Source: Calothrix sp. HK-06 (lineage in GTDB: Bacteria > Cyanobacteriota > Cyanobacteriia > Cyanobacteriales > Nostocaceae). From it: DNA of 24,000 nt. How positions within the stretch are numbered: the stretch's first letter is position 1; the number at the start of each line of letters is the position of its first letter. Position numbers and translations under genes: made by a program. Below the pieces are notes generated by a model. The model did not search any database and was not told the DNA's origin. It saw only the letters and a program-made list of their open reading frames with translations. Shown here one piece after another: positions 1 through 24,000 of the stretch. The DNA lies in contig MRCD01000119.1 of the NCBI GenBank assembly GCA_001904745.1, positions 1,749-25,748 on the forward strand, given 5' to 3'.

Positions 1-233
1 CATCACTAACTGAAATACGAAATAGATTGATTCACGGTGGGAGGTTTGAGAAAGCAGAGTATGAAGCGTTAGTTTGTGCTAAGACTCACCTTAAATGGAC
101 ATTAGAACGTTGTATTCTACGGGTGCTAGATTGGGATATTGAAAAATCCAACGTGCGCCCTTTATTTCTGAAGCACTATGTTAGCTACAATGAGTGGGAG
201 CAAAAGAGGAGCCTTTTAAGCCATATTAGTTGA
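1..233 (+). CDS. 3' end of a larger ORF running off the left edge; HEPN-like C-terminal region
   Basis: The frame of the tracked 27..233 ORF stays open back to nt 3 (SLTEIRNRLIHGGRFE...), so the TTG at 27 is probably not the true start. The translated IRNRLIHG has R-x4-H spacing, as in HEPN RNase motifs. Stop TGA at 231-233. Confidence 0.4.
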   Translation, partial: SLTEIRNRLIHGGRFEKAEYEALVCAKTHLKWTLERCILRVLDWDIEKSNVRPLFLKHYVSYNEWEQKRSLLSHIS

Positions 234-636
234 TTTCATGCTTCAGTTATCAGTAGTTGTTCCAACGCGGCATAATAACCTGGTTGAAATTGGCTGTTAA
301 GATATTTTGGTGGATTGCAAAGACTGTTTACAGCCGCTCATCAAGCCACCTAACGGTGCGCTTGAGTTGTGGGTGGGGATAAGTAGTCGAGAAGTTGCCT
401 GTTAGTATTTGGAATCAAGTGCTACAAGGTTATTGAGGTTGAGCCGAGATAACTATATTTTCGGAAATTGAGGGTTGAAACGCTTACCCTACCTTCTTTT
501 GATAATTTGCTACTTTATTGTACGTAACATGATTTCCAGTAACGAAAAATCAAGCATTTCAAGCCTCTATTTCCGTTCTCGTCCGTATCTCGGATCAACC
601 TCCCGTAGGCGCCGCTACATAATTTATAAGTCTCAG

Positions 637-816
637 TTAGTCGAATTTCAGATTCCTCCTCATGCGTTCCGGCATTTGGGCAATTTGTGCATCAAGGTGG
701 GCGATGAGTTTGTCCATCATCGCGTTTCCTTCTTGTATTTCAGCGCACGTTTTTCTTAATCCTTCCAGGTGTTTTTGTCGAACTTCCAGTGGTGGAATAA
801 CTTTTTTCTTATCCAT
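637..816 (-). CDS. small hypothetical protein (59 aa), second gene of a two-gene cassette
   Basis: ATG at 816 (MDKKKVIPP...) is preceded by GGAG at 6-nt spacing. It overlaps the stop of the upstream ORF in a TAATG junction. The tracked start at 828 is a TTG. Confidence 0.45.
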   Translation of the reverse strand: MDKKKVIPPLEVRQKHLEGLRKTCAEIQEGNAMMDKLIAHLDAQIAQMPERMRRNLKFD

Positions 817-1112
817 TACAATCTCCAATTATTGATTATTTCTTCGATACTGCTAACCCGCGCTGGAACCTTTGCTTCATTGTACATGAGTGTTTCTTCC
901 AGCATATTAGCAGTGGCAATGTCAGCATATGGTTGAATTGTAGTAATTCTTAGTGTAATGGCATTTAGCCTTTTAAACCTATCCGTTGCATCTGTCACTA
1001 CACCTGCAAGTGTATCTGGGTAATACTTCAATGCTTCGTACTGGTCATGCTTATGTTGGTGCCAGTGCCGAAGTTGAAATTGCTTCGATACTGGATAAAG
1101 AATTGAAACCAT
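816..1112 (-). CDS. hypothetical protein (98 aa), first gene of the cassette; start uncertain
   Basis: Translationally coupled to 637..816 through a TAATG overlap. Its first about 80 nt overlap the divergent NERD gene start, so the real start may be internal (a TTG lies at about 1031). No recognisable motif. Confidence 0.35.
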   Translation of the reverse strand: MVSILYPVSKQFQLRHWHQHKHDQYEALKYYPDTLAGVVTDATDRFKRLNAITLRITTIQPYADIATANMLEETLMYNEAKVPARVSSIEEIINNWRL

Positions 1113-1471
1113 CAGGATGGCGCATTGAACATAATTTTAACTTTCCCCGACATGGTGACATTGATGTAGTGCTACTTTCACCTGCATCGCGCGTGTATTG
1201 TATTGACGTGAAATCGCACGAAGGCACGAAACAGTTTATCAATGGTCATTTAGTACGTATGTATAACAAGAATGTTTACTCATTCAAAGAGGGCGATTTA
1301 TTGGAGAAGGTGCGGTTTCAAGCTGATTATGTATCGCAATTAATGAATACTAAGTGTACACCCATACTATGCTTTACCCAGTCGGATGTGGATATTAAGG
1401 GTAATATGGCGAATGGTATCTATGTTTTAAGTAAAAGTAATTTGGTCGATATCCTTAAGAAACTAGGCTAG
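1031..1471 (+). CDS. NERD (nuclease-related domain) protein
   Basis: GASAEVEIASILDKEL...GWRIEHNFNFPRHGDIDVVLLSPASRVYCIDVKSHEG matches the NERD pattern (G..GE...L, then g-IDhvvi...vfviEvK..G). The ATG at 1031 was chosen over the tracked start at 986. Confidence 0.6.
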   Translation: MLRTGHAYVGASAEVEIASILDKELKPSGWRIEHNFNFPRHGDIDVVLLSPASRVYCIDVKSHEGTKQFINGHLVRMYNKNVYSFKEGDLLEKVRFQADYVSQLMNTKCTPILCFTQSDVDIKGNMANGIYVLSKSNLVDILKKLG

Positions 1472-1513
1472 TTAACAGCTTTTTCCACCTAATTCAATAT
1501 CTAACAAAGCAAC

Positions 1514-1543
1514 AGGGGGCTAAAGTGAGTCCCCTTTTTCTTT
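1514..1543 (+). terminator. weak hairpin plus T-run after the NERD gene
   Basis: AGGGG(1514-1518)...CCCCT(1531-1535), 5-bp stem and 12-nt loop, followed by TTTTCTTT. Confidence 0.3.
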
Positions 1544-1730
1544 GCAGCTTTTAATAATTAGTAAGCTTGGTCAATATATACAAAATCTCTATTTGCTTAT
1601 TTTGTACACATATATGCCGAATATCAGAGATGGCTTGTTTTGTGCAACTAACCATCGTAACTATTTTCTAAGGGATTTTAAGCGTATAAAGTGTTGCGCT
1701 TCAAATCTTTACTGTGTATGCTGTCTAAAG

Positions 1731-1862
1731 GATAGCAAAGTAAAAAGCTATCAAAAGGCTATCAAAAAGTTACTTCAAATGAACTTACCTTTAGCTATCG
1801 TTTTACTTGTAGTGAACCTAATGGATACTTTAAATGAAGTTTATTGAAGTTCATTTGAACTT
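1731..1862. promoter_or_regulatory. operator-like repeat cluster upstream of the long operon
   Basis: GATAGC (1731-1736) faces GCTATC at 1747, 1758 and 1794. TTCAAATGAACTT (1774-1786) recurs inverted inside the palindrome AAGTTCA-TT-TGAACTT (1847-1862), 23 nt before the ATG at 1885. Confidence 0.4.
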
Positions 1863-1884
1863 TCGCATGAGTATCGTATGAAAA

Positions 1885-2277
1885 ATGGGATGTAAAGTAA
1901 TCCACACACGTTCGAGCTTATCTCAACGTTATGGAGTGACGACGACAGCGATGAAACTTTGGTATTCACCTGCGGGGGTGATACCACCAAGAAAGAAAGG
2001 AGGGTACTTTAATCACAAAGAGGTAGAGATGTTGGATTATTTTTATTTGGCAACACGTTTTTGTAAGCTGACCTTTAGGGAGTATGAAAGTAAAGTGTTG
2101 CCGATGGGTGGATTAGCAAAATATGTTTTATATGCAATTGAGGTGACGTTAAAAGATTTTTTGCTTAATCCTGAGTATGTAGACCAAGAAGATGTTGTAG
2201 TTAAAGATATTTTGAGGAGATTAGAGAATGATGCTTCATATCAATCAAGTGGTTTCAGAGTTGAGAGTGCAGCGTGA
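1885..2277 (+). CDS. hypothetical protein, possible HTH DNA-binding protein (first gene of operon)
   Basis: 130-aa ORF. The segment SSLSQRYGVTTTAMKLWY looks like a helix-turn-helix. Weak RBS. Confidence 0.45.
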   Translation: MGCKVIHTRSSLSQRYGVTTTAMKLWYSPAGVIPPRKKGGYFNHKEVEMLDYFYLATRFCKLTFREYESKVLPMGGLAKYVLYAIEVTLKDFLLNPEYVDQEDVVVKDILRRLENDASYQSSGFRVESAA

Positions 2278-2851
2278 TGAGATTGTTTCGGCTTGCACTT
2301 TATTAGAATTAAAAGTTGATGGAGACCAATTATCACCTGACACGGTTAGCGTTCTCAACAATGTGAAAGCGGTTGCCGATAAGGGAAATATTAGTTTTTT
2401 GGAAGCAGCACAGCATGTAGCTAATATGAAAAATGGTGAGGGTAGCGCGCAGCAAAGCAATAGGTTTAGCAAGCGTGAGTATATCAAGCAGCGTTTTGGA
2501 GTTGACCCAGAAGCTGCGGCGCCAGGTAGTTTTATATGGATGCTTTATCAAGATGTCAATATTCAATCTGAGCAATTGGGTGAAGTGAGGTATCAGACAG
2601 TAATTGAAGCTTCATCGCATGTACTTCGCGATAGATTGATGAATGGAAATCCTGAAGAAGCGAATAACGAAGGGTTTGAGCAAGCGAATAGTCGTGTGTC
2701 GGAGAATATTACAAGTTTTTTGGGAAACGTCAATTGGGGGGAGTTGCCACAGTTGATGGGGTCATCGACACAACCTACCAAACAGTTGCAAGCGGCGCCT
2801 GCATCGACATCGAAGACTCCTACATCAGCGAAGAAGTCATCAGACAAGTGA
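2228..2851 (+). CDS. hypothetical protein (207 aa), S/T/K-rich C-terminus
   Basis: GGAG lies 8 nt upstream of the ATGATG start. The stop overlaps the next start (TGATG at 2849-2853). Confidence 0.55.
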   Translation: MMLHINQVVSELRVQRDEIVSACTLLELKVDGDQLSPDTVSVLNNVKAVADKGNISFLEAAQHVANMKNGEGSAQQSNRFSKREYIKQRFGVDPEAAAPGSFIWMLYQDVNIQSEQLGEVRYQTVIEASSHVLRDRLMNGNPEEANNEGFEQANSRVSENITSFLGNVNWGELPQLMGSSTQPTKQLQAAPASTSKTPTSAKKSSDK

Positions 2852-3117
2852 TGCCGGAAATTGTTGAGCATCGCAATCAAGCTTTATCACAATTACATCT
2901 AAGTATTGTTTCTGGTTGCCTTGTTCAAACAATATCAACGTTATTAGGAGTGGCGGCTGGTTGGTATACGGTGCAGCCGCCAGTACCTGAGAAGGTTGTA
3001 ATCAAAGATGTTTTCCCGGTAGTGTCGGGTGGATTGTGGGGTGCAGGATTAGGGTTTGCGTTGGCATTAATTGTTGTTAATCGTAAGTTGAGGGAATTAA
3101 AAGATGGCAGGTTTTGA
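2851..3117 (+). CDS. small two-TM membrane protein (88 aa)
   Basis: ATG at 2851 overlaps the upstream TGA. Hydrophobic segments LVQTISTLLGVAAGWY and GGLWGAGLGFALALIVV. The tracked start at 2734 would overlap the previous gene by 118 nt. Confidence 0.55.
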   Translation: MPEIVEHRNQALSQLHLSIVSGCLVQTISTLLGVAAGWYTVQPPVPEKVVIKDVFPVVSGGLWGAGLGFALALIVVNRKLRELKDGRF

Positions 3118-3331
3118 TTTTCTTGTTAATGCAGTGACTGGTTTGGCGGCAAATTCACTGATTAATAGCTTGGTGGGTATTGCGACTGGTGTAGGCGCCG
3201 CTATTGCTTTGCATCCTGTGCTTATTGCAAGTGGAGTGATTGTTGGGGGGACAGCGATAGCTACAATGCGTTCCCTAATAAAAAAATATGAGCGCCCAGT
3301 GTTGGAAGTTATTCAGGGAGGGTTAGAGTAA
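3104..3331 (+). CDS. small hydrophobic membrane protein (75 aa)
   Basis: Gly/Ala/Ile-rich, with two predicted TM helices. The stop overlaps the next start (TAATG at 3329-3333). Confidence 0.6.
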   Translation: MAGFDFLVNAVTGLAANSLINSLVGIATGVGAAIALHPVLIASGVIVGGTAIATMRSLIKKYERPVLEVIQGGLE

Positions 3332-4224
3332 TGGTGCCTAATAAAAAAAAGACCGACTTATTGGGTGTGCTTGATGGCAAGAAGATAAAAAAAATCAATC
3401 CACTTGTACTGACTTCTATTGTTGGTTCACTGTTTACGCTTGTTGCGGTTTTGATGGTATTGAAAGTTTCTGCTGATAAGCGTAACGAATTAGCTAGCGT
3501 GAATAGCCTTTCGTCTCAGTCGGCGCAGGTAGTACAAGCTCGCGAGAATTTCTTGACAACACGCAAAGCCTACGTTGAAAAGTTAAACCGAACTGATTAT
3601 TCGACAAACATAAGGACTAACATTAACTCTGCCAGTGGTGAAGGAGTTCAAACAGGGTGGCGCCAATTAGCAGGTGCAAAATGGTCACAAGATATAAAAT
3701 CGGATTTGAGTAATTTACGGAACGACCCCAAACATCCTTTATATCGGACGGGTGAAACACCAGCACTAGAAGTTTTGAAACTTCAAACACTTGGTACATT
3801 ATCTGAAATTGCAGCAGGTAATACGACCTTCTATGTTGGATACGTCAAAACAGATGGCACAAAAGTCGAGCAAAAACTTTCAACTGGCGCCGCTGCTTAC
3901 TTAACGCTGGGTAAATTGGAAGCAATTGATTTGGCTAATACTTTGGAATCGATACCTGAAGTTAATTTTTCGTTGATGTTGAATGACATTGGAAAAGTCA
4001 ACGAGTCGTATGTATTAGCGCTGCGTGGTTATTTGCAAGCACAAGGGTACAAAGACCCAGTAGACCAATTAGGTGATGCAAGGAAGACGGCTGATGAAAT
4101 TCAGCTTTTACAGGATTTGAAAAATCAAAAGTTGCGTGATATCCAACAGCCATCACAACCACAAGGCATTCAAAAGTTTGCACCTGAACCACGACCTGTA
4201 ATAAGGAGGAATCAAAATGATTGA
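3331..4224 (+). CDS. N-terminally anchored hypothetical protein (297 aa)
   Basis: GGGAGGG RBS upstream. Single TM segment (LVLTSIVGSLFTLVAVLMVL) followed by a soluble domain. Confidence 0.65.
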   Translation: MVPNKKKTDLLGVLDGKKIKKINPLVLTSIVGSLFTLVAVLMVLKVSADKRNELASVNSLSSQSAQVVQARENFLTTRKAYVEKLNRTDYSTNIRTNINSASGEGVQTGWRQLAGAKWSQDIKSDLSNLRNDPKHPLYRTGETPALEVLKLQTLGTLSEIAAGNTTFYVGYVKTDGTKVEQKLSTGAAAYLTLGKLEAIDLANTLESIPEVNFSLMLNDIGKVNESYVLALRGYLQAQGYKDPVDQLGDARKTADEIQLLQDLKNQKLRDIQQPSQPQGIQKFAPEPRPVIRRNQND

Positions 4225-4717
4225 TGTTTTGATGCGTCCATCAATTGTTTTAAAGTTGTTTGGCGCCACTATTTTTGCAGGATTGTCTTTATATAATCTC
4301 GTGTCTTCGAGCGACCAAGTGTTGATTCGGTCAGCTAATTCAAATAGTTCACGCACTGAGGTACGGGTATTTGAATCTCCTAGCCGCAATTTAAATTTGA
4401 TTAGTGGCATAGCATTTGGGGCGGTATCTATTGGATTAATTTATTTTGGTTTGAAGGAATACAACAATGTGGTAGAGGAGTTAGGGGATATTGAATGTGC
4501 TATGCAGCAAGAGGAAGACCACCCCCAATTACAACAGCCAGTGCAGCAACAAATTGTACAACCACAGCCATCTGCACCACATGTTGTACAACCATCGGTT
4601 GAGTTGGGTAACAAACCATATTTAAGGTTAGTACCACCAATTACGGCTGATGGTACATCACTGACTCCGCCTTCGGATTTTATGGAAGATATGGAAGCGA
4701 AAGATTTTTGGGAATAA
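4217..4717 (+). CDS. membrane protein with Q/P-rich linker (166 aa)
   Basis: AAGGAGG RBS. Two TM segments, then QQPVQQQIVQPQPSAPHVVQP. 8-nt overlap with the upstream gene. Confidence 0.6.
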   Translation: MIDVLMRPSIVLKLFGATIFAGLSLYNLVSSSDQVLIRSANSNSSRTEVRVFESPSRNLNLISGIAFGAVSIGLIYFGLKEYNNVVEELGDIECAMQQEEDHPQLQQPVQQQIVQPQPSAPHVVQPSVELGNKPYLRLVPPITADGTSLTPPSDFMEDMEAKDFWE

Positions 4718-4745
4718 CGACACAGTTTAAACAAGGAAAATTGGA

Positions 4746-5288
4746 ATGGCACATCGGAATAACGTGAATAATAACGGTAACGGAAAAAATAACGGGTTTG
4801 TCGATGTCGATTATTCAACATCAGGTGCAATAGTACCAGTTTTGAATACGATGTTATCGAACGCAGTTAATCAAAATGCTGCAACTCAAAGAACTTGTGG
4901 TGGTTTACAAACGTATGATGCAGCGCAACCGTTAACGGTTGAACAAGCTTATAGTCAACCTACTGAAGTTCGCTATGTCAATGCTCGAACGATAACCAAG
5001 CCGGCAGTACCAAGTATAGAAATTCCGTACACAGAGGTATGGAAAGCATCAAGGTTACATCCACAAAACCAGTGGAAATACTTTTGGTATCCGTATTACA
5101 CAGTGATGACTTTTGTTTCGTCACCAGTTGGGATATTGATAACAATAGCGTTGATTTTCCTAGGTGGTGTGAATTTTTTACTTAATGGCAGCTATCAAGG
5201 ACCAGGTTATGCGGCTGGAAAGAAAATCGAGGTAATTCCAAAGGAACTGCCAAAGTTCGCGACACCTGTTATAGATACAGTGGAGTAA
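4746..5288 (+). CDS. hypothetical protein with C-terminal TM helix (180 aa)
   Basis: AAGGA RBS. TM segment SPVGILITIALIFLGGVNFLL. TAATG overlap with the next gene. Confidence 0.6.
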   Translation: MAHRNNVNNNGNGKNNGFVDVDYSTSGAIVPVLNTMLSNAVNQNAATQRTCGGLQTYDAAQPLTVEQAYSQPTEVRYVNARTITKPAVPSIEIPYTEVWKASRLHPQNQWKYFWYPYYTVMTFVSSPVGILITIALIFLGGVNFLLNGSYQGPGYAAGKKIEVIPKELPKFATPVIDTVE

Positions 5289-5599
5289 TGATTATGTGGA
5301 GTAGATTGACTTTCTGGAGTGTTTTTGCGGCATTTATTTTGAATATTTTGCAACCAGGGTACATGCAATTTTATGACGTGCGTAAACCAATGCTTGCTCT
5401 TTTAACTAATTTGAAAGTGCCAGCGACTAAGGAAGCAAACCAATCTCAAGAAAATGCGGCTAAAACACCTGAGTCAAGTTCTACTCCACCACCAACTCCC
5501 TCACCAACTCCTAAATCTACGTGTCAACCACCAAAGAATGATTACGACCGAATACTTTTCGCGCAAGGAATAGGAGAATGTAATGCGTCTGGTGATTGA
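5288..5599 (+). CDS. small membrane protein with P/T/S-rich tail (103 aa)
   Basis: N-terminal TM (FWSVFAAFILNIL), then SSSTPPPTPSPTPKS. Coupled on both sides. Confidence 0.55.
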   Translation: MIMWSRLTFWSVFAAFILNILQPGYMQFYDVRKPMLALLTNLKVPATKEANQSQENAAKTPESSSTPPPTPSPTPKSTCQPPKNDYDRILFAQGIGECNASGD

Positions 5600-6449
5600 T
5601 TTAAGTCGTACTCATAACGATAATGATGAATTGGTTGTTGATAATCAGTTAGTAGATACGGATGATACTGATGTTGAAGATAGTAGCGGTAAATGGTTGT
5701 TGCCACTTTTAACCTGTGGTTTAGCGATTGCGATTGTGGTTAGACCAGTATCCGAGTTAGTTAAAACGGCGCCACCCGTTGTTTGGCTACAAAGTCAAGT
5801 TGGTACATTAACATCCACGTCTAATCAGCAAACTTCAATAGTTGCTAATCGTTTATATGCGGCAATGCAGCGTAAAGGCTATCCAATAGCTAAAGGTAAG
5901 GGTGAAACTAACATTATTTATGTACGTGGTGGGGATATTAACGGTCAGCCTACAGGTAATCGTATAAATGAATGGTCAGACGCGCGCTTTGTGTTGATGT
6001 TCCGTGGTGGGCAACCATATATTGCGGGGAAGTGGAAAGCGACGATTAAGCCAGGGCTTCCTGCAATTAGGAATCCATTAGGTAAGCGTGGTGCGGCGTT
6101 TATTGAGGATGGTTACTACAAAGCATGGCGCCTGGGTATTCATCAAGGGATATTTGGAAGAAGAGAGCGTGGTTTGGTGCAAGTGGCGCCAGTAAACTTT
6201 CGTCGTGATGTTAATCGTGATGGAAATGTATCGGGCGAGCCAGTACAAAATGGAATGATTGGGCTTAACCAGCATTCTGGTAGTAATAATAGAGAGGTTG
6301 ATAAAACTTCATATGCCTGTCTGGTAGCACAGTCAAGTGAAGGTCACTTAGAGGAATTTGTACCATTACTTGAAAACGACCCTCGTTACAAAACGAATTC
6401 GCAGCATATGTTTGGGACTGCGATATTAAGTATTGGCAACTTACGATGA
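5583..6449 (+). CDS. membrane-anchored putative cell-wall-active enzyme (YkuD-like His...Cys signature)
   Basis: Short N-terminus (MRLVIDL...) plus a TM helix, then a domain ending in GLNQHSG-x10-SYACLV. This resembles the H...S-x-G-C catalytic pattern of L,D-transpeptidase-fold proteins. The family assignment is tentative. Confidence 0.6.
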   Translation: MRLVIDLSRTHNDNDELVVDNQLVDTDDTDVEDSSGKWLLPLLTCGLAIAIVVRPVSELVKTAPPVVWLQSQVGTLTSTSNQQTSIVANRLYAAMQRKGYPIAKGKGETNIIYVRGGDINGQPTGNRINEWSDARFVLMFRGGQPYIAGKWKATIKPGLPAIRNPLGKRGAAFIEDGYYKAWRLGIHQGIFGRRERGLVQVAPVNFRRDVNRDGNVSGEPVQNGMIGLNQHSGSNNREVDKTSYACLVAQSSEGHLEEFVPLLENDPRYKTNSQHMFGTAILSIGNLR

Positions 6450-7078
6450 AATTAGTAGTCGATTTTGAAGGTGGTAGTAACCCACGTCCGAAACGGGGTA
6501 AAAAGCAATCGAGTGGTAAATTAGGTGATGCCAATTGGCAGACAGCAGTATTAACGGGATTGATGGTTGCTGGAATAGTAGTTCCTCAATTTTCAGCAAC
6601 ATTGAAAGGGATTTTTGCTTTATCTGATAGCGCAGTAGAAACAACAGAAATCAATACTGGCTCGGAATCTGTTAAGTTTCGACTACCTGTAGCAAAGGGT
6701 GTATCTACTACATCAGAGTATGGGTGGCGTACTCACCCAATTACAGGGCAACGTAAGTTTCATGCAGGTCTTGATTTTGGTGCGGCGTATGGACAACCTA
6801 TTTATGCAGCGGCGCCGGGAGTAGTCACCTTTGCTGGAGAGAAAGGTGGATACGGCAATACTGTAGAGGTTAAGCATAATAATCGCGAATCAACATTATA
6901 TGGACATGCAAGTAAATTGATGGTGAGTGTTGGGCAACGAGTAGCACAAGGGCAGGTAATTGCACTTGTTGGTAGTACAGGATTTTCAACGGGTCCACAT
7001 TTACATTTTGAAGTGCATATCAACGGGCAACATACTAATCCCCGACCATTTTTAGGTAATCAAATAGCAGGTAGGTAA
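6446..7078 (+). CDS. membrane-anchored M23 family metallopeptidase
   Basis: HAGLDFGAAYGQPIYAAAPGVV...GYGNTVEVKH...GSTGFSTGPHLHFEVHING carries the HxxxD and HxH motifs of M23/LytM peptidases. N-terminus MKLVVDF... plus a TM helix. ATGA overlap with the upstream gene. Confidence 0.9.
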   Translation: MKLVVDFEGGSNPRPKRGKKQSSGKLGDANWQTAVLTGLMVAGIVVPQFSATLKGIFALSDSAVETTEINTGSESVKFRLPVAKGVSTTSEYGWRTHPITGQRKFHAGLDFGAAYGQPIYAAAPGVVTFAGEKGGYGNTVEVKHNNRESTLYGHASKLMVSVGQRVAQGQVIALVGSTGFSTGPHLHFEVHINGQHTNPRPFLGNQIAGR

Positions 7079-7079
7079 T

Positions 7080-8045
7080 ATGGTTGAGAAATTAGTACTA
7101 GGAGGAATAGCTGGGAGCGTAATAGGTGTTGGTATTGCGTATGGTTTTGCGTCATTACCATGTGGTTTAGTTTCAAAACCTGCGGATAAAGTATGCTACG
7201 TGCGCGCGTTTAATAAATCATTAGATGCGTGGAAGATTGGGTGTTTGGGTGGGGTAATAATTGGGTTAACACTTAGTAATAGTAATAAGCAGCGTCGATT
7301 TAAGTTTCAGCCCATGCATTTATCAATAGTAGGTATTTTGGTATTAGTAGGGGCTGTTGCAGCTAATAATAAATCGCTTGGATTTGGAATTACTAATACA
7401 CAATCACTGTTTCAACTTAATAACACTAACAATTTATCTCCTAGAATGAGCGCATTTCTTGCCACGATAAGATGGGCAGAAACGGGTACAAGTGATAAGT
7501 CGAGTTATAATAAATTAGTGTTTAATGGCACTTTTAATGATTTTTCGGCTCACCCTAAGATTAAACAATGCGCTCCAATAAATGGAAAACGTGTTTGTTC
7601 AACTGCTGCTGGTGCTTATCAAATGTTAGATATATCTTGGAATGATGTGGCGCCAAAATTAGGGTTGAAAGATTTTACTCCACCTTCGCAGGATAAAATG
7701 GCAATTGAATATATTCGCCGTAATAAAGCTATAGATGATGTGGAGTCAGGAAATATTGAAATGGCATTTTGTAAGGTAGGAAAGGTATGGGCTAGTTTGA
7801 TTTGTAATAATTATAATCAAAATCCATGGACTACAGAGGAGTTAAAAAATTACTATAATAAACAATTAATTGCTGCGGGTGGTGAGCCAGTCAGCGGTAA
7901 GTCCAGTTGGCGGGAATGGTTTTCTTTCCGGAAAGCTCGCCACGGGGAGTACTCCCTGTGGCAGACTTTCCGCCAAACTGGCGAACCCCAAAGGGGTGGA
8001 AGCTTCTTTCCCGTTGGACTGGCGAACCCAAAGGGAGGTAATTAA
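7080..8045 (+). CDS. membrane-anchored lambda-R-type lytic transglycosylase (GH104-like); 3' end may be an artefactual extension
   Basis: FLATIRWAETGT...YNKLVFNGTFNDFSAHP...STAAGAYQMLDISWNDVAPKLGLKDFTPPSQDKMAIEYI...VWASL aligns motif-for-motif with phage lambda R (FLDMLAWSEGT...DYSDHP...STGAGRYQLL...LGLKDFSPKSQD...IWASL). Three N-terminal TM segments. The last 53 or so codons translate the GC-rich element at 7880-8040. Confidence 0.88.
   Translation: MVEKLVLGGIAGSVIGVGIAYGFASLPCGLVSKPADKVCYVRAFNKSLDAWKIGCLGGVIIGLTLSNSNKQRRFKFQPMHLSIVGILVLVGAVAANNKSLGFGITNTQSLFQLNNTNNLSPRMSAFLATIRWAETGTSDKSSYNKLVFNGTFNDFSAHPKIKQCAPINGKRVCSTAAGAYQMLDISWNDVAPKLGLKDFTPPSQDKMAIEYIRRNKAIDDVESGNIEMAFCKVGKVWASLICNNYNQNPWTTEELKNYYNKQLIAAGGEPVSGKSSWREWFSFRKARHGEYSLWQTFRQTGEPQRGGSFFPVGLANPKGGN
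7880..8040 (+). other. GC-rich, highly structured element at the lysozyme/FtsK gene junction
   Basis: Nested hairpin: GGAAAG(7930-7935)/CTTTCC(7966-7971) encloses GCCACGGGGAG-TA-CTCCCTGTGGC (7939-7962). The outer arms are CCAGTTGGCGG(7903-7913)/CCGCCAAACTGG(7970-7981). A competing CTTTCC sits at 7924-7929. Direct repeats ACTGGCGAACCC(C)AAAGGG at 7977-7996 and 8018-8035. Two forward frames stay open across the element. Confidence 0.5.
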
Positions 8046-8047
8046 TT

Positions 8048-10916: not shown

Positions 10917-10928
10917 TTTGAGGAGGTA

Positions 10929-15260: not shown

Positions 15261-15292
15261 CTTAATCTCCTCTTCAACTACTTAATATTTTT

Positions 15293-15321: not shown

Positions 15322-15349
15322 AAAATTCATGTAAGCCATTATACAAAAA

Positions 15350-15418: not shown

Positions 15419-15710
15419 AATTGTCATTGCCGCATAAGAAACTCGACTTCCAGCCCAGTTCTTCAAGCAATTTTATGCGCCAAGGCAAATAATCACCAAT
15501 ACATACCAATATATCATGGATAATCCCGTTTGTGTTCATTTATCTTTTGGCGTATATAAATACGTTAATAATTGTATCCATAGATTGTTATTGATAACGA
15601 TTATTATTCGTTTATCGTTGAAAAATGTTGTACATATTTGCTTAAAGTTCCTAACGGTAGAACTTTTCTCCTTTTTAACTAAAAGTAATAGGAGAATATT
15701 GTCAACGACT

Positions 15711-15964: not shown

Positions 15965-17239
15965 ATGTCCAATTACGTTTTTGTCATTGATACAAACAAA
16001 AAACCTTGTAACCCGGTTCACCCAGCAGTTGCGAGAAAATTATTAAAGGAGAAGCAAGCCGCTGTATTTAGACGATTCCCGTTTACCTTGATTCTTAAAA
16101 TCAAGTTAACTGAACCAACACGAGAAATTCAACTCAAAATTGACCCTGGTTCTAAAACAACAGGGATTGCTTTAACTCAAGGTTCTTACGTTATTTGGGG
16201 AGCCGAACTTACACATCGAGGTGGAATAATAAAAGACGCATTACAATCACGCCGTTCGTTACGTCGTAGTAGAAGAAACCGTCATACTCGGTATCGTCAA
16301 CCTAAGTTTTTAAATCGAACAAGACGTGATGATTGGTTAGCACCAAGTTTGCAACATCGAGTTGAAACAACTATTACATGGGTAAACAAGTTAATCAAAT
16401 TTGTACCAATTACTGGAATATCTCAAGAGTTAGTTAGATTTGATTTGCAACAAATTGAGAATCCGGAAATATCAGGAACTGAGTATCAGCAAGGAGAGTT
16501 AGTAGGTTACGAAGTTCGTGAGTATCTACTTAACAAGTGGGATAGAAAATGTAGTTATTGTGGGATACAAAATGTTCCATTACAAATCGAGCATATTCGC
16601 TGCATAGCCAAGGGGGGTACGAATCGAATATCTAATCTATGTTTAGCCTGCGAGTCTTGCAATCTTAAAAAGGGAACACAAGACATTGAAGATTTCTTAG
16701 TTAAGAAGCCTCTTGTATTGAAACAAATTTTATCTCAGGCGAAAAGACCATTAAAAGATGCAGCAGCAGTGAATTCGACTCGATGGGCATTGTTTAATCG
16801 ACTCAAAAAAACAGGATTACTAGTTACTACTGGTTCTGGAGGACTAACTAAGTTTAATCGAACTCGCTTAAATTTAGAAAAAACTCATTGGCTAGATGCC
16901 GCCTGTGTTGGAAAAGTAGACACCTTGAAAGTTTTAACTAAAAAGCCACTAATAATTAAATCAACTGGACACGGAACGAGGCAACAATGTAGAACTGATA
17001 AATTTGGCTTTCCGAGTAGATACTGTTCTATAAACAAGTTTCATTTTGGTTTTCAAACTGGCGATATCGTTAAGGCAATAGTTAAAACAGGCAAAAAAAT
17101 CGGAAATTATATTGGTCGAATTGCAACACGTTCAACAGGTAGTTTTAACATTTCAACTAGTAATGGATTAGTTCAAGGTATTTCTCATAAATACTGTAAA
17201 GCTATCCATAAAAAAGACGGTTACAACTACTCAAATTGA
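15965..17239 (+). CDS. iscB: IscB (RuvC-HNH, OMEGA-type RNA-guided nuclease), apparently intact
   Basis: N-terminal PLMP-like VFVIDTNKKPCNPVHPAVARKLLKEKQAAVFRRFPFTLIL. RuvC-I KIDPGSKTTGIAL (D60). Arg-rich bridge helix RRSLRRSRRNRHTRYR. RuvC-II ISQELVRFD (E155). HNH CSYCG...LQIEHI...NLCLACESCNLKKG. RuvC-III THWLDAACVG (H308/D311). C-terminal GFQTGDIVKA...GRIATRSTGSF barrel. Confidence 0.92.
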   Translation: MSNYVFVIDTNKKPCNPVHPAVARKLLKEKQAAVFRRFPFTLILKIKLTEPTREIQLKIDPGSKTTGIALTQGSYVIWGAELTHRGGIIKDALQSRRSLRRSRRNRHTRYRQPKFLNRTRRDDWLAPSLQHRVETTITWVNKLIKFVPITGISQELVRFDLQQIENPEISGTEYQQGELVGYEVREYLLNKWDRKCSYCGIQNVPLQIEHIRCIAKGGTNRISNLCLACESCNLKKGTQDIEDFLVKKPLVLKQILSQAKRPLKDAAAVNSTRWALFNRLKKTGLLVTTGSGGLTKFNRTRLNLEKTHWLDAACVGKVDTLKVLTKKPLIIKSTGHGTRQQCRTDKFGFPSRYCSINKFHFGFQTGDIVKAIVKTGKKIGNYIGRIATRSTGSFNISTSNGLVQGISHKYCKAIHKKDGYNYSN

Positions 17240-17326
17240 TAAAGACTCAAACAGGTTAAAACCTGTTTGGTCGCTTCCCTCTCAGTACGCTCCGTGACTG
17301 AGGAAACTCGCATACCAGGTAATGTT

Positions 17327-18532
17327 ATGAAAAACAACACGGAAATTAAACATTTAAGTCCAAGTGAATTAGTTATTCATGCTGAATTACTGCGTATATA
17401 TGGAGATACCCAAGAGAAGCATGATTTACAGTTAGATATTGAAAAAAATGGCATCATGGTGCCATTAGTCGCATCAACACGTACATCAATCATTACTATT
17501 GTGTCGGGTAGGCGCCGACTACGAGATGCAATTGCGCTCTTGTTTGAATCAGTACCAGTAATTTGTTACCAATTCCCATCCGAGGAAGCGGAAAAACATT
17601 TCATCCTATCCGCTAACCGTGATAGACCCAAAACAAGGTTTCAACAACTGTTGGAAGGGAAGGAATGGGAATCACTTGAAAAACAGGCTGCTGCATTGCG
17701 GCGCCAACAGGGATTAAATCAACGCTGGAAGGATAAAGACATCGAAAAAGGCATTGATGACTCTGAATACTACCCAGTAGCATTGCTAGACAATTATTCC
17801 CCTTCTGACACATCTCAACGGAGTGTCTCTCAAGAGCCACACGAATTAAATAAAAAGCAGAGAGCGACGGATAAAGTAGGTGAACGGATTGGGATGTCGC
17901 GTCATAGTTATGAAAGAGGCAAGCGCGTTATTGAAAAATGTGAAAAATTACGTGATAGGGGTAAGGAGATTGAAGCGTTGGCGCTTGAGATGTATTTGGA
18001 ATCGGCAGGTATTGTACCAGCAAGTGATTTATTGAAGGCACCGAATTGTGACGAGGTTTTGGACTTGTTGGGCAGTGGTCAATCAAAAACTATTGGAGAG
18101 GCATTGTTGAAAGTGTCGCGCGTGAATAGTGCGAGTGCAGTAGTTGAGGGAGCTATATTTTTCTTTCCAGATGACATATTGCGTAAACGGACTTATTACC
18201 ATTCGGGTCGTGTGGTGAAGATAGCTAACATGACTGCGACGGTGTGCTTCCGAGATAGTGTTGATGATGATTTACGTAAACATCAATATAAATGTGATGA
18301 ACTGCTTGCTTTGAATAAAGAAGATGAAAACCTTCACCATCAAAGGTTACGGGATAGGATGAGTCGGTTATTGGTTCATCCTTGTGCTACTGCGAACGAT
18401 AAATATATGTTAAATCGGTTGCTTGGTGCTGTTGTGTGTACGCAGGATGAAGTTGACTGGCTACAGTTCATTGAACGACGTGTTGAAGATTTGGAAATTC
18501 AAAAAACAAGAACTTTGGAGGTAGTATCATGA
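17327..18532 (+). CDS. ParB/Srx-fold N-terminal domain protein with central HTH
   Basis: LSPSELVIHAELLRIYG...LQLDIEKNGIMVPLVAS...IVSGRRRLRDAI matches the ParB N-terminal domain, including the GxRR box. HTH-like ATDKVGERIGMSRHSYERGKRVIE. ATG at 17327 chosen over the tracked TTG at 17267. ATGA overlap with the next gene. Confidence 0.72.
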   Translation: MKNNTEIKHLSPSELVIHAELLRIYGDTQEKHDLQLDIEKNGIMVPLVASTRTSIITIVSGRRRLRDAIALLFESVPVICYQFPSEEAEKHFILSANRDRPKTRFQQLLEGKEWESLEKQAAALRRQQGLNQRWKDKDIEKGIDDSEYYPVALLDNYSPSDTSQRSVSQEPHELNKKQRATDKVGERIGMSRHSYERGKRVIEKCEKLRDRGKEIEALALEMYLESAGIVPASDLLKAPNCDEVLDLLGSGQSKTIGEALLKVSRVNSASAVVEGAIFFFPDDILRKRTYYHSGRVVKIANMTATVCFRDSVDDDLRKHQYKCDELLALNKEDENLHHQRLRDRMSRLLVHPCATANDKYMLNRLLGAVVCTQDEVDWLQFIERRVEDLEIQKTRTLEVVS

Positions 18533-21500
18533 AAATTGCGCGCACTTCAAAACGCAATAGTTGCCGAGTATGTGGTGAACACGATTCAAAATGTGGATGG
18601 GTACCCGATACCAATATTCATTTTTGCATGAATATTAATGATGCAATATCTGCCCCACCTGGATGGAAATATAAAGGGGAAACCCGCAACGGCATGTGGG
18701 GTATATTTGTACCGGATGATGGTAAAAAGTATACTGAAGAAGAAATTGCAGCATACAAACAGCGCAAGGTAGAGGAAGAATTAAAACGGCGGCAACAGCA
18801 CACCCAGTCGTTAAGTGAAGCATCGCGCCATCATGAATTAACCAAGTTGGTTAACCAGTTACCATTAAATGGGCGCCATAGTGAGGATTTGAAGCATCGT
18901 AATTTGAGTGATGAATTGATTTCAAGGGGTAACTTCCGCAGTGTTGGCCAGTTCCAGAAGCTTGATTTTGAACTATCTCATAACCTACCAGGTGCATCTA
19001 TCAATGGTAAATCTCTCACTAACAGATATTCTGGGTACATAGTTCCTATATGGAATGAACATGGTCAAATGGTTGGTTATCAAATACGTAATGATGATAT
19101 TGAGGGTGAAAAGGGCGCCAAATATGTATGGGCAACGAGTAATGCTAACACGCGTAGGTTGAAGGGTGTATCCTCGCACCTGCAAAATGGTGAATTACCT
19201 CTTACCTTCTGCGTGTCCGACAAGTTAAAAAGTCAAATTAACCATGCATTAATTTCAAATACAAATTCAGATCAAAGTGTAAAGCTAAGTCACTGCATCA
19301 ATTTAGCAGAAGGGTTTTTGAAAACATTCATTATTGCCCATTTGCGTGAGCTACTCGTGATAGGCGCCGCAGGTGGTAACTTTGTTGGCAGCATTGAAAC
19401 CTTCAAACGTTACCTTGATGCAGCGAGTCTTATGTTGGGTGGAACGAAAGAGGTAGTATTATGGGCAGATGCAGGCGCCATAGCGAATAAGCACGTAATG
19501 CGCCAGTATAGAAAAACCTACTCAGTATTAAGAAGGTGGGGCTATAGCTTACAAATAGCATGGTGGGGTCAAATCGATAAAAACTGCCTTGATGGGGATG
19601 AGTACCTGGGTGATTATGAGTTGATTAGCTGGTACGAGTTTGAATCAATGTCGCCCAACCCTAGCAGTATATTGAGGGAAGTTGAAAAGTTATTCAATCT
19701 TACTAAAAAACATTTATTCCGCAATAAATCAAAAACTGCCTTTGTCCCTAATGTAAAACAGGTAAATACATATCAATATGTACCAGGAAACCTGCCTACT
19801 TACGAAGACTATTTGGAAATGGGGTGTCCTTCCATCATTTATAAAAATGATGAACGTGCGACTATATGGAAAGAGGCAGAGTTAAAAGGATGGAAACATA
19901 TACTCGACTTTTCGGCACCAGGACTCGGTAAATCCCATACAGTAGGTAGTCTTACTGCTGAGTATATGGGTATGAACCAGTTGATGTATTTGGCATCAGA
20001 CCACCGTAACCCAACTACTATTACGATTGAAAAGAACTTTGTTGATGTGTTTCCCCGTCATGGTGGGTTAGAAAAAGACCCCACACGTCGAACACCTTTA
20101 GGTAAAGAGTTTCTTATACATAGTGATGGGAGCAGTGTTCGTGAAAAGACTAAAAGCAATTGCGCGCGTCACGAATTATTTGCGATTGCCAGAAAGAAAA
20201 ATATTGACCTTGAAGCTAGTGATGAAGGGATATGCCAAGGATGTAATTTATACGCATCATGTCAGAAAGGGGTGGGTGATAATTTTGGTTATTTGTCTGA
20301 TAGAGCTAGAGCATTAAGAAACCCACAAATTAGGCTACACCCGGATAGCACACCTTTACCAAGTAATTATGAATATGAGAGAGTGCTTGTTATTTGGGAT
20401 GAGACATCAGTATTGATGCGTAGTAAACTTAAAATTGATGTAAGACTTAGTGACATATATCAGTCGTTGGGGGCAATAATTGCAGCATTTGAAGAAACGA
20501 AGTCAATGGGTCGTGACTTCAACGTGTCGGATTCAATATCTCCCTTATTGATAATTACTCACGTATTGTTGAAACTGTTTGAAATACCTAAAAGTGAATT
20601 GGGTAGGTATGGGCTAAGTGATAGTGATATCCGTGAATTGTTGGGTGTGGCGCCAACTGAAACGTATCAAGAAATAGCAATTTTATTGGATAATCCACCT
20701 AACTTAGACTTTTTGAGCGAACAATCGGATAGAATTGACACATCAAAGTTATCCGCTGCTGATAAGCGTGGTGTGGGCAAATTCAATAAATTATTGCGTG
20801 GTGAGCATAATGATGACGCACGTGAGAAATTGGAAGCATTACCACTAAATTGGTTAGTACAGTTTATGGAAGTATGGGCAGGTTATACACCTGGATGCTT
20901 TACTTTCAACTTGGGCGTGTTTACCATACACCAATTTGATAGGCGCCACCGGGATGTAGCAGACGCAGCTGCATCCAATATTTATCTCGATGGTACAATG
21001 CCTGTTGAAAATCTTGCTTTGAAATTAGGCGTGCCACGCTCTAATATATTGGTGCTAAAAACTGAAACACCTGATTATTCCAACCTGGAAATAATACACA
21101 TCCCAGATATGGGAGTACTGAGTCGTGACCGTAGGGATTCTCAACAAGTTCGTGTTGATGCACTACGTGAAGCAATTCTTAATCTTGAAAGCAAGAAGTC
21201 AGATAATGCCATAGTTGGTTGTATTGAACGCAAAGCATTTGCTCGTGAGGGTGATGGGTATCATTTCCGCGATAGTCGGGGTATAAATAGGTTCAGTAAT
21301 GCAACTGCGATAATCGGTATTGGGGCACCTTATGCAAATATAGGGGAAATGCAAGCCGAATATCACCTATTACAAAAAGATAAATGTAAACGCGACGCAG
21401 CGAATTTAAGCAGTATGGGATTGCTGTTGAATTTGCTTTTATATTTGACAGTGGATGATATAGCGTTAATGTTGGCACCATTGTATGAAGTAGATTGTAG

Positions 21501-22188
21501 TAAGCAGGAATATATAGATAAGTTAGTGGATGCGGAGATATTGCAGGAAGTAGGGAGACTGCGTTCCCACCTGCGTCGTGATGAGTTGCTGACTTATTAT
21601 TTTGTGGGTGAATATGAGTTGGGAAAAGTTTTAAATGAGTTGCCGGGTGTGAAGTATACGTGTAGGGAGTCGTGTGAGTATTCGATAAAAGCTTGTGGTG
21701 GAACTAGGCGCCTGGAATTGATGGTTTGTAATGCTATTGGTGCAGTAATGTCAATGGGTATTGAGTCACCGACACAGAAACAAGTTATAGCTGAGATTGA
21801 AAATAAGAGCGACTACGGGAAAGTAAGTCAGGGTCGTATAAGTCAGGTGATGCAGCGGTTCGGGGGATGGGGCGCCATCTTGAAATTAGTGCGTAATGTG
21901 CTACTTGGAGTGAGGGAGTTTCCTTGTACTGATAACTCGTTTGATGATGAGAGATGGATAATAGAGACTTACTTGCCATTGATACTTGAGACAGCTGTCG
22001 ATGACCCAGTAGAAGCTGCACGCAAGTTGGTGGGTATAGCGGTCGTGCATGGATGGGGCGCTTTGAAGAAATGTATCAGTAGTGTTTCCTATGAATTACA
22101 GCAACAACTTGTAGATTTAGTGTTGGGGTTATATGCACTTTTTGATGCTGGGGGTATTGAGGAGTTAGCGGCTTTGGGAACTGAATGA
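18529..22188 (+). CDS. large plasmid replication protein: Zn-finger + TOPRIM-like (DUF3854-type) + P-loop helicase-type NTPase
   Basis: N-terminal CRVCGEHDSKCGW. GYIVPIWNEHGQMVGYQIRNDD...KYVW. LAEGFLKTFIIA and VLWADAG resemble TOPRIM E and DxD-type motifs. Walker A FSAPGLGKSHTVG and Walker B VLVIWDETS. This architecture resembles the primase-helicase Rep proteins described for cyanobacterial plasmids (from memory, not a search). Confidence 0.75.
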   Translation: MKIARTSKRNSCRVCGEHDSKCGWVPDTNIHFCMNINDAISAPPGWKYKGETRNGMWGIFVPDDGKKYTEEEIAAYKQRKVEEELKRRQQHTQSLSEASRHHELTKLVNQLPLNGRHSEDLKHRNLSDELISRGNFRSVGQFQKLDFELSHNLPGASINGKSLTNRYSGYIVPIWNEHGQMVGYQIRNDDIEGEKGAKYVWATSNANTRRLKGVSSHLQNGELPLTFCVSDKLKSQINHALISNTNSDQSVKLSHCINLAEGFLKTFIIAHLRELLVIGAAGGNFVGSIETFKRYLDAASLMLGGTKEVVLWADAGAIANKHVMRQYRKTYSVLRRWGYSLQIAWWGQIDKNCLDGDEYLGDYELISWYEFESMSPNPSSILREVEKLFNLTKKHLFRNKSKTAFVPNVKQVNTYQYVPGNLPTYEDYLEMGCPSIIYKNDERATIWKEAELKGWKHILDFSAPGLGKSHTVGSLTAEYMGMNQLMYLASDHRNPTTITIEKNFVDVFPRHGGLEKDPTRRTPLGKEFLIHSDGSSVREKTKSNCARHELFAIARKKNIDLEASDEGICQGCNLYASCQKGVGDNFGYLSDRARALRNPQIRLHPDSTPLPSNYEYERVLVIWDETSVLMRSKLKIDVRLSDIYQSLGAIIAAFEETKSMGRDFNVSDSISPLLIITHVLLKLFEIPKSELGRYGLSDSDIRELLGVAPTETYQEIAILLDNPPNLDFLSEQSDRIDTSKLSAADKRGVGKFNKLLRGEHNDDAREKLEALPLNWLVQFMEVWAGYTPGCFTFNLGVFTIHQFDRRHRDVADAAASNIYLDGTMPVENLALKLGVPRSNILVLKTETPDYSNLEIIHIPDMGVLSRDRRDSQQVRVDALREAILNLESKKSDNAIVGCIERKAFAREGDGYHFRDSRGINRFSNATAIIGIGAPYANIGEMQAEYHLLQKDKCKRDAANLSSMGLLLNLLLYLTVDDIALMLAPLYEVDCSKQEYIDKLVDAEILQEVGRLRSHLRRDELLTYYFVGEYELGKVLNELPGVKYTCRESCEYSIKACGGTRRLELMVCNAIGAVMSMGIESPTQKQVIAEIENKSDYGKVSQGRISQVMQRFGGWGAILKLVRNVLLGVREFPCTDNSFDDERWIIETYLPLILETAVDDPVEAARKLVGIAVVHGWGALKKCISSVSYELQQQLVDLVLGLYALFDAGGIEELAALGTE

Positions 22189-22340
22189 TGAAATAGGCGC
22201 CCTTGTTTAATGTAACAGCGTTATTCAAAAATCCTCATGCTGCGGTATGAGCAATTTACTGTGCTGACTTTTTATCCTCATATGTCACTTTACCCTGTAA
22301 CTATACCCAAAAGTTTTCTGGGCATGGAAGCATAAGTGTA

Positions 22341-22522
22341 ACTTAAAGGAAAAAGTGGCCGAAATTAAAGCATAAAATGACCGCAGTCCAAAACCTATAG
22401 TAGAAAAGGATTTGAGAGAGTTGAATGCGCGAACTTACAGAATATGATAACGGAATAACAAGCATTTCAGATTACTAAGGGTGGCCACTTTATCCTTTAA
22501 AAACGGCCACTTTATCTTTTAA
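22341..22522. repeat. iteron-like 18-20-bp repeats (candidate Rep binding sites / oriV)
   Basis: GGCCACTTTATCCTTTAA (22483-22500) and GGCCACTTTATCTTTTAA (22505-22522) are direct repeats 22 bp apart. ACTTAAAGGAAAAAGTGGCC (22341-22360) is an inverted copy. A degenerate ACTTTTTATCCT lies near 22266-22280. Confidence 0.55.
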
Positions 22523-23109
22523 GCGACACATTTTTTCTGAATACGCTAAAAAGTTACTGCCATCTGTTGGTTCAAGTCACATCATACATTGTATGAGTAT
22601 TTCCTCTTACAAAGTTAGGCGGGACGGAAACCGACACCGCCTACTTTGCGCTGTCATGTCAATATAAACTCATACGACATGAATTAACCCTATATTATTT
22701 AATTTACACTCCTTCATTGGCGCCTTTAAACTACACGAACCACACTCATATACAAAAATACTCAATATTTCAATGACATTGGTAGTGCTATTCACTACTC
22801 AGTAAATAAAATTATTTAGTATTTATCAATATGGCGCCTTTCAATACATTGAATAAGATGAATAATACGTAAATAAGTAGGTTGAATTATTAGTTTTGTA
22901 TTTATTGCTTTATATACAAAATTAATAATGAGTGATTAGGTACGTCGTAAGTCAACAAACCTACACCATGTCTCACTGTTTTTAAGATTCAATACTTTTT
23001 GTCGTTCGGGATAGCTGACATAACATAGTCTTGGGTCACTGGGGTGGTTTTTCATGATTTGTCCACTCCAGTGATGCGTTCCTTCTCAGGACTGTTACTT
23101 TGAAAAATT

Positions 23110-23502
23110 TTATATTTTAAATTTATCTCCAGCGATTTCTAGCATTATAAATGGTAGAACTTTCTCAGTTTCAAGAATTATTAGTCTTTCTTTAACAGAA
23201 ATTAATCTACACTTTGAAAAATCGCAATTTGATGCTAATTGTGCAGCATAATTTATAAGACTTTTACTATTTTCACTACTAAGTTCAAATATTTCTAACA
23301 ACCCTTTAATTGCTAAAAATTCTATATTTATGATTTCATCCGTATGATTTGTTTCAGGTAATTTAGCTACTATGACACCGGGTTCATTTGCTTCAATAAT
23401 AAAGTCATGTACTTTCCGTAATTTTTTCAAAAGAATACTTAAATTATTAGGTTTTCCATAACTATCTGGATACAACTGTTTACGACGTTTAGCTTCTCCC
23501 AT
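23110..23502 (-). CDS. hypothetical protein (130 aa)
   Basis: AGGAGG lies 6 nt upstream of the second ATG (23502; MGEAKRRKQ...). AT-rich gene with no recognisable motif. Confidence 0.55.
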   Translation of the reverse strand: MGEAKRRKQLYPDSYGKPNNLSILLKKLRKVHDFIIEANEPGVIVAKLPETNHTDEIINIEFLAIKGLLEIFELSSENSKSLINYAAQLASNCDFSKCRLISVKERLIILETEKVLPFIMLEIAGDKFKI

Positions 23503-23595
23503 TGTAGACCTCCTCATTGTCGTTTAAATTATTTATGAAAGTGGTTCTTCTCTTAATTATAGTACCGAATACAGAATAAAATCATTGGCTAATTT

Positions 23596-24000
23596 TTATT
23601 TTGCAAATATACAATATTCAAGTAAGTAATGATATTGAGGTATTGTTGGAATTATAATGATTGTCTGTGTTTTAGTTTTAAAGTTTGGTGCCAATGATTT
23701 TAAGCTTGCTAATTCGTTATCTGATTTTTGTAATTCAGGTGCTTGAGGTGATTGAGGTGTACTTGGATTTAGTTGGCAGGCACGACTTGATGGATAAAGA
23801 ACTGTTAACTTTTTAGGACAGGCTGTACTTTTATCGTTTATCAACTTTCTAGCATCATTAATACTTTTCTCTTTTGCGACCTTTACCGCATTTGTTACTT
23901 CAGATACCTTATCTATCTTGTTTATTTTATATTGAATTAGCATAATCACTGAATGTAGACTCCCATCATAAATATATCGCTTATGTTTGTAAAAATACAT
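23596..24000 (-). CDS. hypothetical protein, possibly truncated by the window edge
   Basis: The ORF reaches the right edge. An ATG sits exactly at 24000-23998, but the true start may lie outside the window. Very AT-rich. Confidence 0.4.
   Translation of the reverse strand: MYFYKHKRYIYDGSLHSVIMLIQYKINKIDKVSEVTNAVKVAKEKSINDARKLINDKSTACPKKLTVLYPSSRACQLNPSTPQSPQAPELQKSDNELASLKSLAPNFKTKTQTIIIIPTIPQYHYLLEYCIFAK

Follow-up and report, generated by a model that had tools for sequence, protein, structure and literature searches.

The tetranucleotide GATC is nearly absent from a 24,000-nt stretch of DNA from Calothrix sp. HK-06 (contig MRCD01000119.1; the whole stretch is referred to as the window), in which a direct count finds two sites, at 593-596 and 19270-19273, corresponding to an observed/expected ratio (O/E) of 0.03. 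Depletion of GATC recurs in approximately 730 kb of related DNA and is a lineage-wide trait that is not specific to one element. Over 50-56% of its length, the window shares 85-91% identity with two Calothrix megaplasmids, plasmid1 of Calothrix sp. NIES-4105 (AP018291.1, 395 kb; hereafter plasmid1) and p1 of Calothrix sp. PCC 7716 (385 kb), and it matches a plasmid-borne transfer and replication region of a Calothrix lineage of the GGCGCC type. The near-absence of GATC as such is already known: it is a rediscovery of a published lineage signature, here in its most extreme form and on a plasmid transfer region, because Elhai (2015; Life 5:921, PMC4390886) described the same signature for Calothrix PCC 7103.

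Site-specific loss of GATC in the window

Base composition predicts 82 GATC sites in the window, dinucleotide models and shuffles predict 60-61 (standard deviation 7), with all of 100 shuffles lying far above 2, and the maximal-order Markov model predicts 72. Among all 256 tetramers, GATC takes the bottom rank. Of the 487 occurrences of the trinucleotide GAT, 154 have A as the next base, 168 have G and 163 have T, but only two have C. Since the window is mostly coding, a stricter null model was added, in which synonymous codons were shuffled 500 times with all protein sequences and the codon usage of the pooled genes preserved. The coding DNA (19.6 kb) contains a single GATC compared with 49.9 ± 5.2 expected in these shuffles, the minimum of which was 36, and the non-coding DNA of the window contains one compared with approximately 7 expected. 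The control palindromes CATG, GTAC, TCGA and AGCT have normal frequencies in the window (O/E 0.8-1.05), and the constraint therefore acts on the GATC word itself. The under-representation of GATC is site-specific and significant, and neither composition nor codon usage is sufficient to explain it. An earlier reading of the window, made from its letters and open reading frames (ORFs) alone (the sequence-only reading), had located GATC at the same two positions, had estimated about 80 sites from base composition and had noticed that GAT is almost never followed by C. The direct count and the computed expectation agree with all three statements (485 of the 487 GAT have A, G or T next), and the comparison with Markov models that this reading had proposed gave an O/E far from 1 under the mono-, di- and trinucleotide as well as the codon-aware null models.

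GATC is avoided through context-dependent choice among synonymous codons, at the level of the DNA and not of the protein. When the following codon starts with C, aspartate is encoded by GAC in 23 cases and by GAT in one, whereas elsewhere GAT (280) is used far more often than GAC (52). Isoleucine codons that follow a codon ending in G are never ATC (0 of 75), compared with 57 ATC among 363 isoleucine codons elsewhere, and the arrangement xGA-TCx is not found once in 195 chances. After aspartate, leucine is encoded by TTR in 28 cases and by CTN in two, and arginine by AGR in 13 cases and by CGN in two, whereas CTN and CGN are common elsewhere.

The first of the two residual sites (593-596) is apparently intergenic. 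No gene called on the matching public contig covers it, in agreement with its non-coding placement in the sequence-only reading, and neither the NIES-4105 nor the PCC 7716 plasmids have a sequence that aligns with the stretch around it. The second site (19270-19273) is formed by an aspartate codon GAT and a codon starting with C within an ORF of 1219 amino acids (aa) at 18529-22188, and is likewise not conserved, as the aligned NIES-4105 position reads GGGG. More generally, residual GATC sites are unconserved among three related plasmids; one site is common to two of them, and at this position the window has the synonymous GAC-C. The few GATC sites present are young and vary from strain to strain, and the pattern fits a continuing removal of newly arising sites.

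The lineage signature and its uneven depth

Plasmid DNA flanking the block that is homologous to the window, which encodes a haemagglutinin-like protein, GUN4 and others and is unrelated to the window, is equally poor in GATC and free of the iterated palindrome HIP1 (GCGATCGC). The whole 395 kb of plasmid1, assembled from nine fetched stretches, contains 145 GATC compared with 1038 expected (O/E 0.14). In the 366-kb plasmid2 of NIES-4105, which is non-mobilizable, O/E lies between 0.10 and 0.22, and values of 0.17 and 0.04 were obtained for p3 and p2 of PCC 7716, respectively. A chromosomal locus of PCC 7103 holds 14 GATC compared with 57 expected (O/E 0.25), lacks HIP1 and has frequent GGCGCC. 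Apart from one island of plasmid1, no HIP1 was found in these lineage replicons. Because the unrelated flanks and the other replicons are GATC-poor as well, the depletion is not specific to the element. One of the possibilities raised in the sequence-only reading, namely that the host genome itself lacks GATC, is thereby borne out, since GATC is scarce and HIP1 absent in the flanks, in plasmid2, in a third plasmid and in the chromosomal locus of PCC 7103. In contrast, approximately 75 loci around IscB homologues from other cyanobacteria, including Nostoc, Anabaena, Scytonema, Tolypothrix, Microcoleus and HIP1-bearing metagenome-assembled 'Calothrix' genomes, have a GATC O/E of 0.3-1.4, and nearly all of them carry several HIP1 sites. 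The sole sizeable window-like locus in this set is the one from the chromosome of PCC 7103. In a Calothrix metagenome bin, a 5.4-kb contig has an O/E of 0.19 and lacks HIP1, which is, however, present on further contigs of this bin.

GGCGCC is the most frequent 6-bp palindrome of the window, with 33 copies (1.38 per kb) compared with 1.2 expected from base composition, and is spaced at about 6-7 copies per 5 kb. The coding DNA alone contains 28 copies, compared with 2.3 in the synonymous shuffles. Across the DNA of the lineage, GGCGCC occurs at 1.2-3.4 copies per kb, with a total of 464 on plasmid1. Neither HIP1 nor CGATCG is found in the 24 kb of the window, which thus falls outside the class of HIP1-bearing DNA, in which GCGATCGC is frequent (roughly 0.3-2.7 per kb). 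Instead, the window shows the traits that define membership of the lineage, with GATC at or below 0.16 of expectation, HIP1 not over-represented, CGATCG depressed, GGCGCC high, and relatedness of the sequence. The contrast with HIP1-bearing cyanobacterial DNA that the sequence-only reading had drawn therefore holds, whereas it had missed that GGCGCC replaces HIP1 and that GATC is accompanied by many other avoided palindromes. In the window, GGCC occurs five times compared with 30 expected, and TTCGAA is absent. On plasmid1, the counts observed are far below the Markov expectation for TTCGAA (0 compared with 66), CCATGG (0 compared with 25), GTGCAC (0 compared with 37), GTCGAC (0 compared with 28), CGTACG (0 compared with 23), ACGCGT (1 compared with 36), GCATGC (1 compared with 37), CTCGAG (4 compared with 39) and GGCC (48 compared with 467). 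GATC is one of many palindromes avoided in this lineage, and others are avoided as strongly or even more strongly. A multitude of avoided palindromes is typical of filamentous cyanobacteria rich in restriction systems.

The depth of GATC depletion is uneven along plasmid1 (chi-square 120 on 38 degrees of freedom), and three classes can be told apart when the DNA of the lineage is pooled. Transfer and replication backbones, including the window, contain 28 GATC compared with 775 expected (O/E 0.036) and 1.41 GGCGCC per kb. Other resident DNA contains 158 GATC compared with 1004 expected (O/E 0.157) and 2.01 GGCGCC per kb, and a metal-resistance island of plasmid1 (90-160 kb) contains 60 GATC compared with 170 expected (O/E 0.35) and 0.67 GGCGCC per kb. 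The value of the middle class equals the genome figure given for PCC 7103 (Elhai, 2015). GGCC (O/E 0.08-0.11) and TTCGAA (zero) are avoided uniformly in all three classes. The island (AP018291.1, about 90,000-160,000) encodes Czc, ZiaA, P-type ATPases and ArsR/SmtB as well as transposases. It holds all ten of the ten HIP1 sites of plasmid1, ten times the GATC of the backbone and half the usual density of GGCGCC, and was probably acquired recently from a HIP1-bearing cyanobacterium and has since been adapted only in part. At 0.35, compared with 0.036-0.157 elsewhere, this probable import is depleted less strongly than the DNA that has long been resident. A simple residence-time model, in which DNA gains GGCGCC as it loses GATC, was not retained: the correlation along plasmid1 is weak (Spearman -0.36), and plasmid2 contradicts it by combining the highest density of GGCGCC (3 per kb) with only average GATC depletion.

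Possible causes of the GATC loss

With moderate confidence, we consider the window to be long-resident plasmid DNA of the lineage that shares the lineage signature, and a GATC-cutting Type II enzyme of this lineage to be the most likely cause of the GATC loss. The lineage would have been under prolonged exposure to such a restriction enzyme, as the literature suggests, and each unprotected GATC would be a liability for the resident genome and an even greater one for DNA that enters by conjugation. The other possibility raised in the sequence-only reading, a footprint of GATC-specific restriction, coincides with this cause proposed in the literature, and both of its alternatives are broadly right. 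The deeper purge of the backbones could then result from extra selection at each horizontal transfer or from a longer time under selection. According to Elhai (2015; PMC4390886), GATC reaches 16% of expectation in PCC 7103, the most extreme value of 97 cyanobacteria, and this strain possesses a putative active GATC restriction enzyme that is associated with branches of GATC methyltransferases. The same account describes the loss of HIP1 in PCC 7103 and names GGCGCC as an alternative HIP. For plasmids in general, avoidance of the targets of restriction-modification (R-M) systems has been reported (Shaw et al., 2023; PMC10359461).

Several points weigh against restriction by an enzyme of the lineage. 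The proposed cause rests on the gene prediction of one paper in PCC 7103, a related strain. A tblastn search with a Dam query detected Dam genes in two unrelated cyanobacterial loci but none on the window or plasmid1, and no gene resembling a GATC restriction enzyme was found on either. Across cyanobacteria, the frequency of GATC is described as not generally related to the presence of a GATC restriction enzyme (Elhai, 2015; PMC4390886). GATC methyltransferases are presented there as near-universal in cyanobacteria, with PCC 7103 not among the exceptions. The DNA of cyanobacterial donors should therefore be methylated and hence protected from an enzyme of the MboI/DpnII type, and with near-universal GATC methylation the extra purge of the backbones is hard to explain unless the enzyme ignores N6-methyladenine (m6A). 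The difference in GATC depletion between the backbones and other resident DNA, with the former depleted 4-5 times more strongly (p about 1e-16), depends on a split of plasmid1 that was partly set after the counts had been seen, although a subset chosen blind still gives approximately 0.037 compared with 0.165. Finally, mobilizable p3 of PCC 7716 lies at 0.17 and not at 0.03, indicating that mobility does not always go along with deeper depletion.

In further searches for candidate genes, a cyanobacterial Dam compared with all plasmids gave no Calothrix record among the matches listed, and none of the neighbours of Dam genes on Crinalium and Stanieria plasmids is annotated as a nuclease. Plasmid1 carries three genes for 5-methylcytosine (m5C) methyltransferases, for which Pfam, PADLOC and PDB gave generic matches only; these sources gave none for the adjacent ORFs. 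One of the three lies in an R-M-like module of the plasmid1 backbone (AP018291.1, 255,974-259,630), which consists of a helix-turn-helix regulator, this m5C DNA methyltransferase of 418 aa and an ORF of 403 aa without a detectable family. This module is conserved, with a homologous region at about 44,900-47,750 of locus L086.

Alternatively, the conjugative element alone may have shed GATC to escape the restriction systems of its recipients, independently of the host genome. The greater depletion of the backbones compared with other DNA of the same strains (0.036 compared with 0.157, a factor of 4-5) would be in line with such an origin. The same is true for the two sites of the window, which fall significantly short of the number predicted from the lineage average (P about 8e-4), and for the known avoidance of R-M targets by plasmids (Shaw et al., 2023; PMC10359461). 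However, the non-homologous flanks, the 366-kb non-mobilizable plasmid and the chromosomal locus are also depleted 4-10 times, and the whole-genome figure published for PCC 7103 is 0.16 (Elhai, 2015; PMC4390886). Moreover, the element bears the GGCGCC signature of its host at full density, and p3 of PCC 7716 lacks extra depletion in spite of being mobilizable. An exclusive origin in the element is possible but unlikely, and an element-specific mechanism can only act as a second layer over the lineage trait. If the difference between the classes of DNA is real and not one of age, a GATC barrier might operate mainly at plasmid entry, between strains that differ in their GATC modification. We regard this as quite doubtful. 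An entry barrier would be unexpected in view of the near-universal GATC methylation of cyanobacteria, and, if true, it would imply either a GATC nuclease that is insensitive to m6A or a removal of GATC that does not involve restriction and is linked to the substitution of GGCGCC for HIP1.

The loss of GATC might also be driven by mutation or repair, either through a changed methylation-dependent repair signal, as in the mismatch-repair ratchet of Elhai, or through deamination of methylated cytosine within GATC. The DNA that has lost GATC, HIP1 and CGATCG has also gained GGCGCC, the densities of GATC and GGCGCC along plasmid1 show the weak anticorrelation mentioned above (p 0.02), and a repair-based model of HIP turnover has been proposed (Elhai, 2015; PMC4390886). 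A signature of deamination was looked for and not found: GATT and AATC, which C-to-T changes would produce, show no enrichment (O/E 0.93-1.11), and no single one-off variant takes up the lost sites. In addition, the high GGCGCC density of plasmid2 at average GATC depletion uncouples the two trends, and the model of Elhai (2015; PMC4390886) itself uses a restriction enzyme to account for the drop in GATC. Taken by itself, a process of mutation or repair is decidedly improbable as the cause.

The sequence-only reading had also considered a methyl-dependent, DpnI-type enzyme, for which Dam-methylated GATC would be the target. Given the near-universal methylation of GATC in cyanobacteria (Elhai, 2015; PMC4390886), an element leaving such donors would indeed carry methylated sites. 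However, nearly all cyanobacteria, including PCC 7103, carry a GATC methyltransferase, and a host that combined it with a methyl-dependent GATC nuclease would cut its own DNA. The product of the PCC 7103 gene is presented as a GATC restriction enzyme tied to GATC methyltransferase branches (Elhai, 2015; PMC4390886), nothing that we found points to a DpnI-like gene, and this variant is very unlikely. To a compositional or chance artefact without biological meaning we give practically no credence, as the depletion withstands every null model applied, including the codon-aware one, and recurs across the related DNA.

Gene content of the window and relation to known systems

The window shows a strand asymmetry, with 5394 G and 3915 C on the plus strand (skew approximately 0.16), and nearly all genes are co-oriented on this strand. 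A block of co-oriented genes (1685-15700, plus strand) is 88-91% identical to plasmid1 of NIES-4105 and p1 of PCC 7716. It encodes an M23 peptidase (6446-7078, plus strand), and an FtsK/SpoIIIE-type translocase (8048-10216, plus strand) with weak similarity to TraB, EssC and EccC. A P-loop ATPase is also among the co-oriented genes of the window. The region 17267-22188, which is 75-79% identical to the related plasmids, encodes a ParB-N-like protein (17267-18532, plus strand) and the hypothetical protein of 1219 aa (18529-22188, plus strand). The latter had been labelled 'Rep' in the sequence-only reading, a label without family support, as Pfam, NCBIfam and PADLOC gave zero matches. Its ORF has 70-79% DNA identity in both related plasmids and is annotated as hypothetical there. 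A phage origin of the window was considered and rejected, with zero matches in a phage collection. Two shorter stretches have counterparts on other plasmids. The unannotated stretch 22337-22562 is 75-90% identical to likewise unannotated DNA on a plasmid of Nostoc sp. ATCC 53789 and on p3 of PCC 7716. Rfam was empty for it at the gathering score, and it may represent a non-coding element that has been conserved, for instance an origin or an RNA. In both related plasmids, the stretch 646-989 matches two separate places (approximately 73% identity) that precede the conserved block on its upstream side. In locus L001 from plasmid1, for example, these are 13069-13304 and 13541-13878, where small hypothetical ORFs are found. 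The stretch is a short duplicated module.

A mobile IscB insert (15701-17324, plus strand) is absent from both related plasmids, which are contiguous across the site, and is inserted precisely. It comprises a HEARO/omega RNA (15701-15940, plus strand) and the IscB coding sequence (15965-17239, plus strand). The insert contains neither GATC nor GGCGCC, and neither of these counts is informative at such a length. In the sequence-only reading, the insert was among the modules across which the depletion was said to extend. We dropped this argument because 79 IscB homologues in other cyanobacteria have a mean of 1.6 GATC, with 20 of them having none, so that a GATC-free copy carries no weight. In the loci of many cyanobacteria, IscB genes are GATC-poor, with approximately 1.3 sites per kb compared with approximately 3 per kb in their flanks, and HIP1 and GGCC are missing from nearly all of them, regardless of the host. 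The closest homologues of the window copy (79-82%) reside in a HIP1-bearing metagenome-assembled Calothrix genome. The window IscB itself was found on a single public contig, and the chromosomal IscB of PCC 7103 has no relative with more than 81% identity.

Compared with what is published, the stronger purge of GATC in the backbones and the use of the signature as a detector of imports constitute a new increment, which is modest and partly post hoc. The combination of missing GATC, missing HIP1 and dense GGCGCC marks DNA that is native to one Calothrix lineage and exposes recent imports, and vectors for these strains are best designed without GATC and several of the other avoided palindromes. 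Plasmid data are added to a published case from which it has been argued that the iterated palindromes of cyanobacteria are shaped by restriction enzymes and orphan methyltransferases. No new question is opened by the window.

The closest known system is the signature of Calothrix PCC 7103 / D253 (Elhai, 2015, PMC4390886; Robinson et al., 1995, as cited there), of which four traits are common to the window and its relatives: GATC is strongly reduced, HIP1 and CGATCG are nearly absent, and GGCGCC is the dominant iterated palindrome. The publication gives the whole-genome average of one strain (16%), whereas our data come from plasmid DNA of other strains. A transfer and replication backbone at 3-4% of expectation and a depletion that varies along a replicon go beyond that whole-genome account (Elhai, 2015; PMC4390886).

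HIP1-bearing cyanobacterial DNA, which includes most Nostocales, belongs to the same taxonomic neighbourhood and shares the avoidance of GGCC and TTCGAA with the window. However, HIP1-bearing loci have a GATC O/E of 0.3-1.4 and several HIP1 sites per 20 kb, of which the window has none. Avoidance of restriction sites, as palindromes, in bacterial genomes, phages and plasmids was reportedly described by Gelfand and Koonin in 1997. As in the restriction-site avoidance analysed since then (Rusinov et al., 2015, PMC4687349; Shaw et al., 2023, PMC10359461), a short palindrome falls below its Markov expectation in the window. The likeness extends to the use of synonymous substitutions, to the stronger effect in mobile DNA and to the avoidance of further palindromes (GGCC, TTCGAA, CCATGG, GTGCAC and GTCGAC, among others). 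In contrast to those systems, the cognate enzyme is putative in the Calothrix lineage, and the magnitude of the depletion, approximately 30-fold, lies at the extreme end for a 4-bp site.

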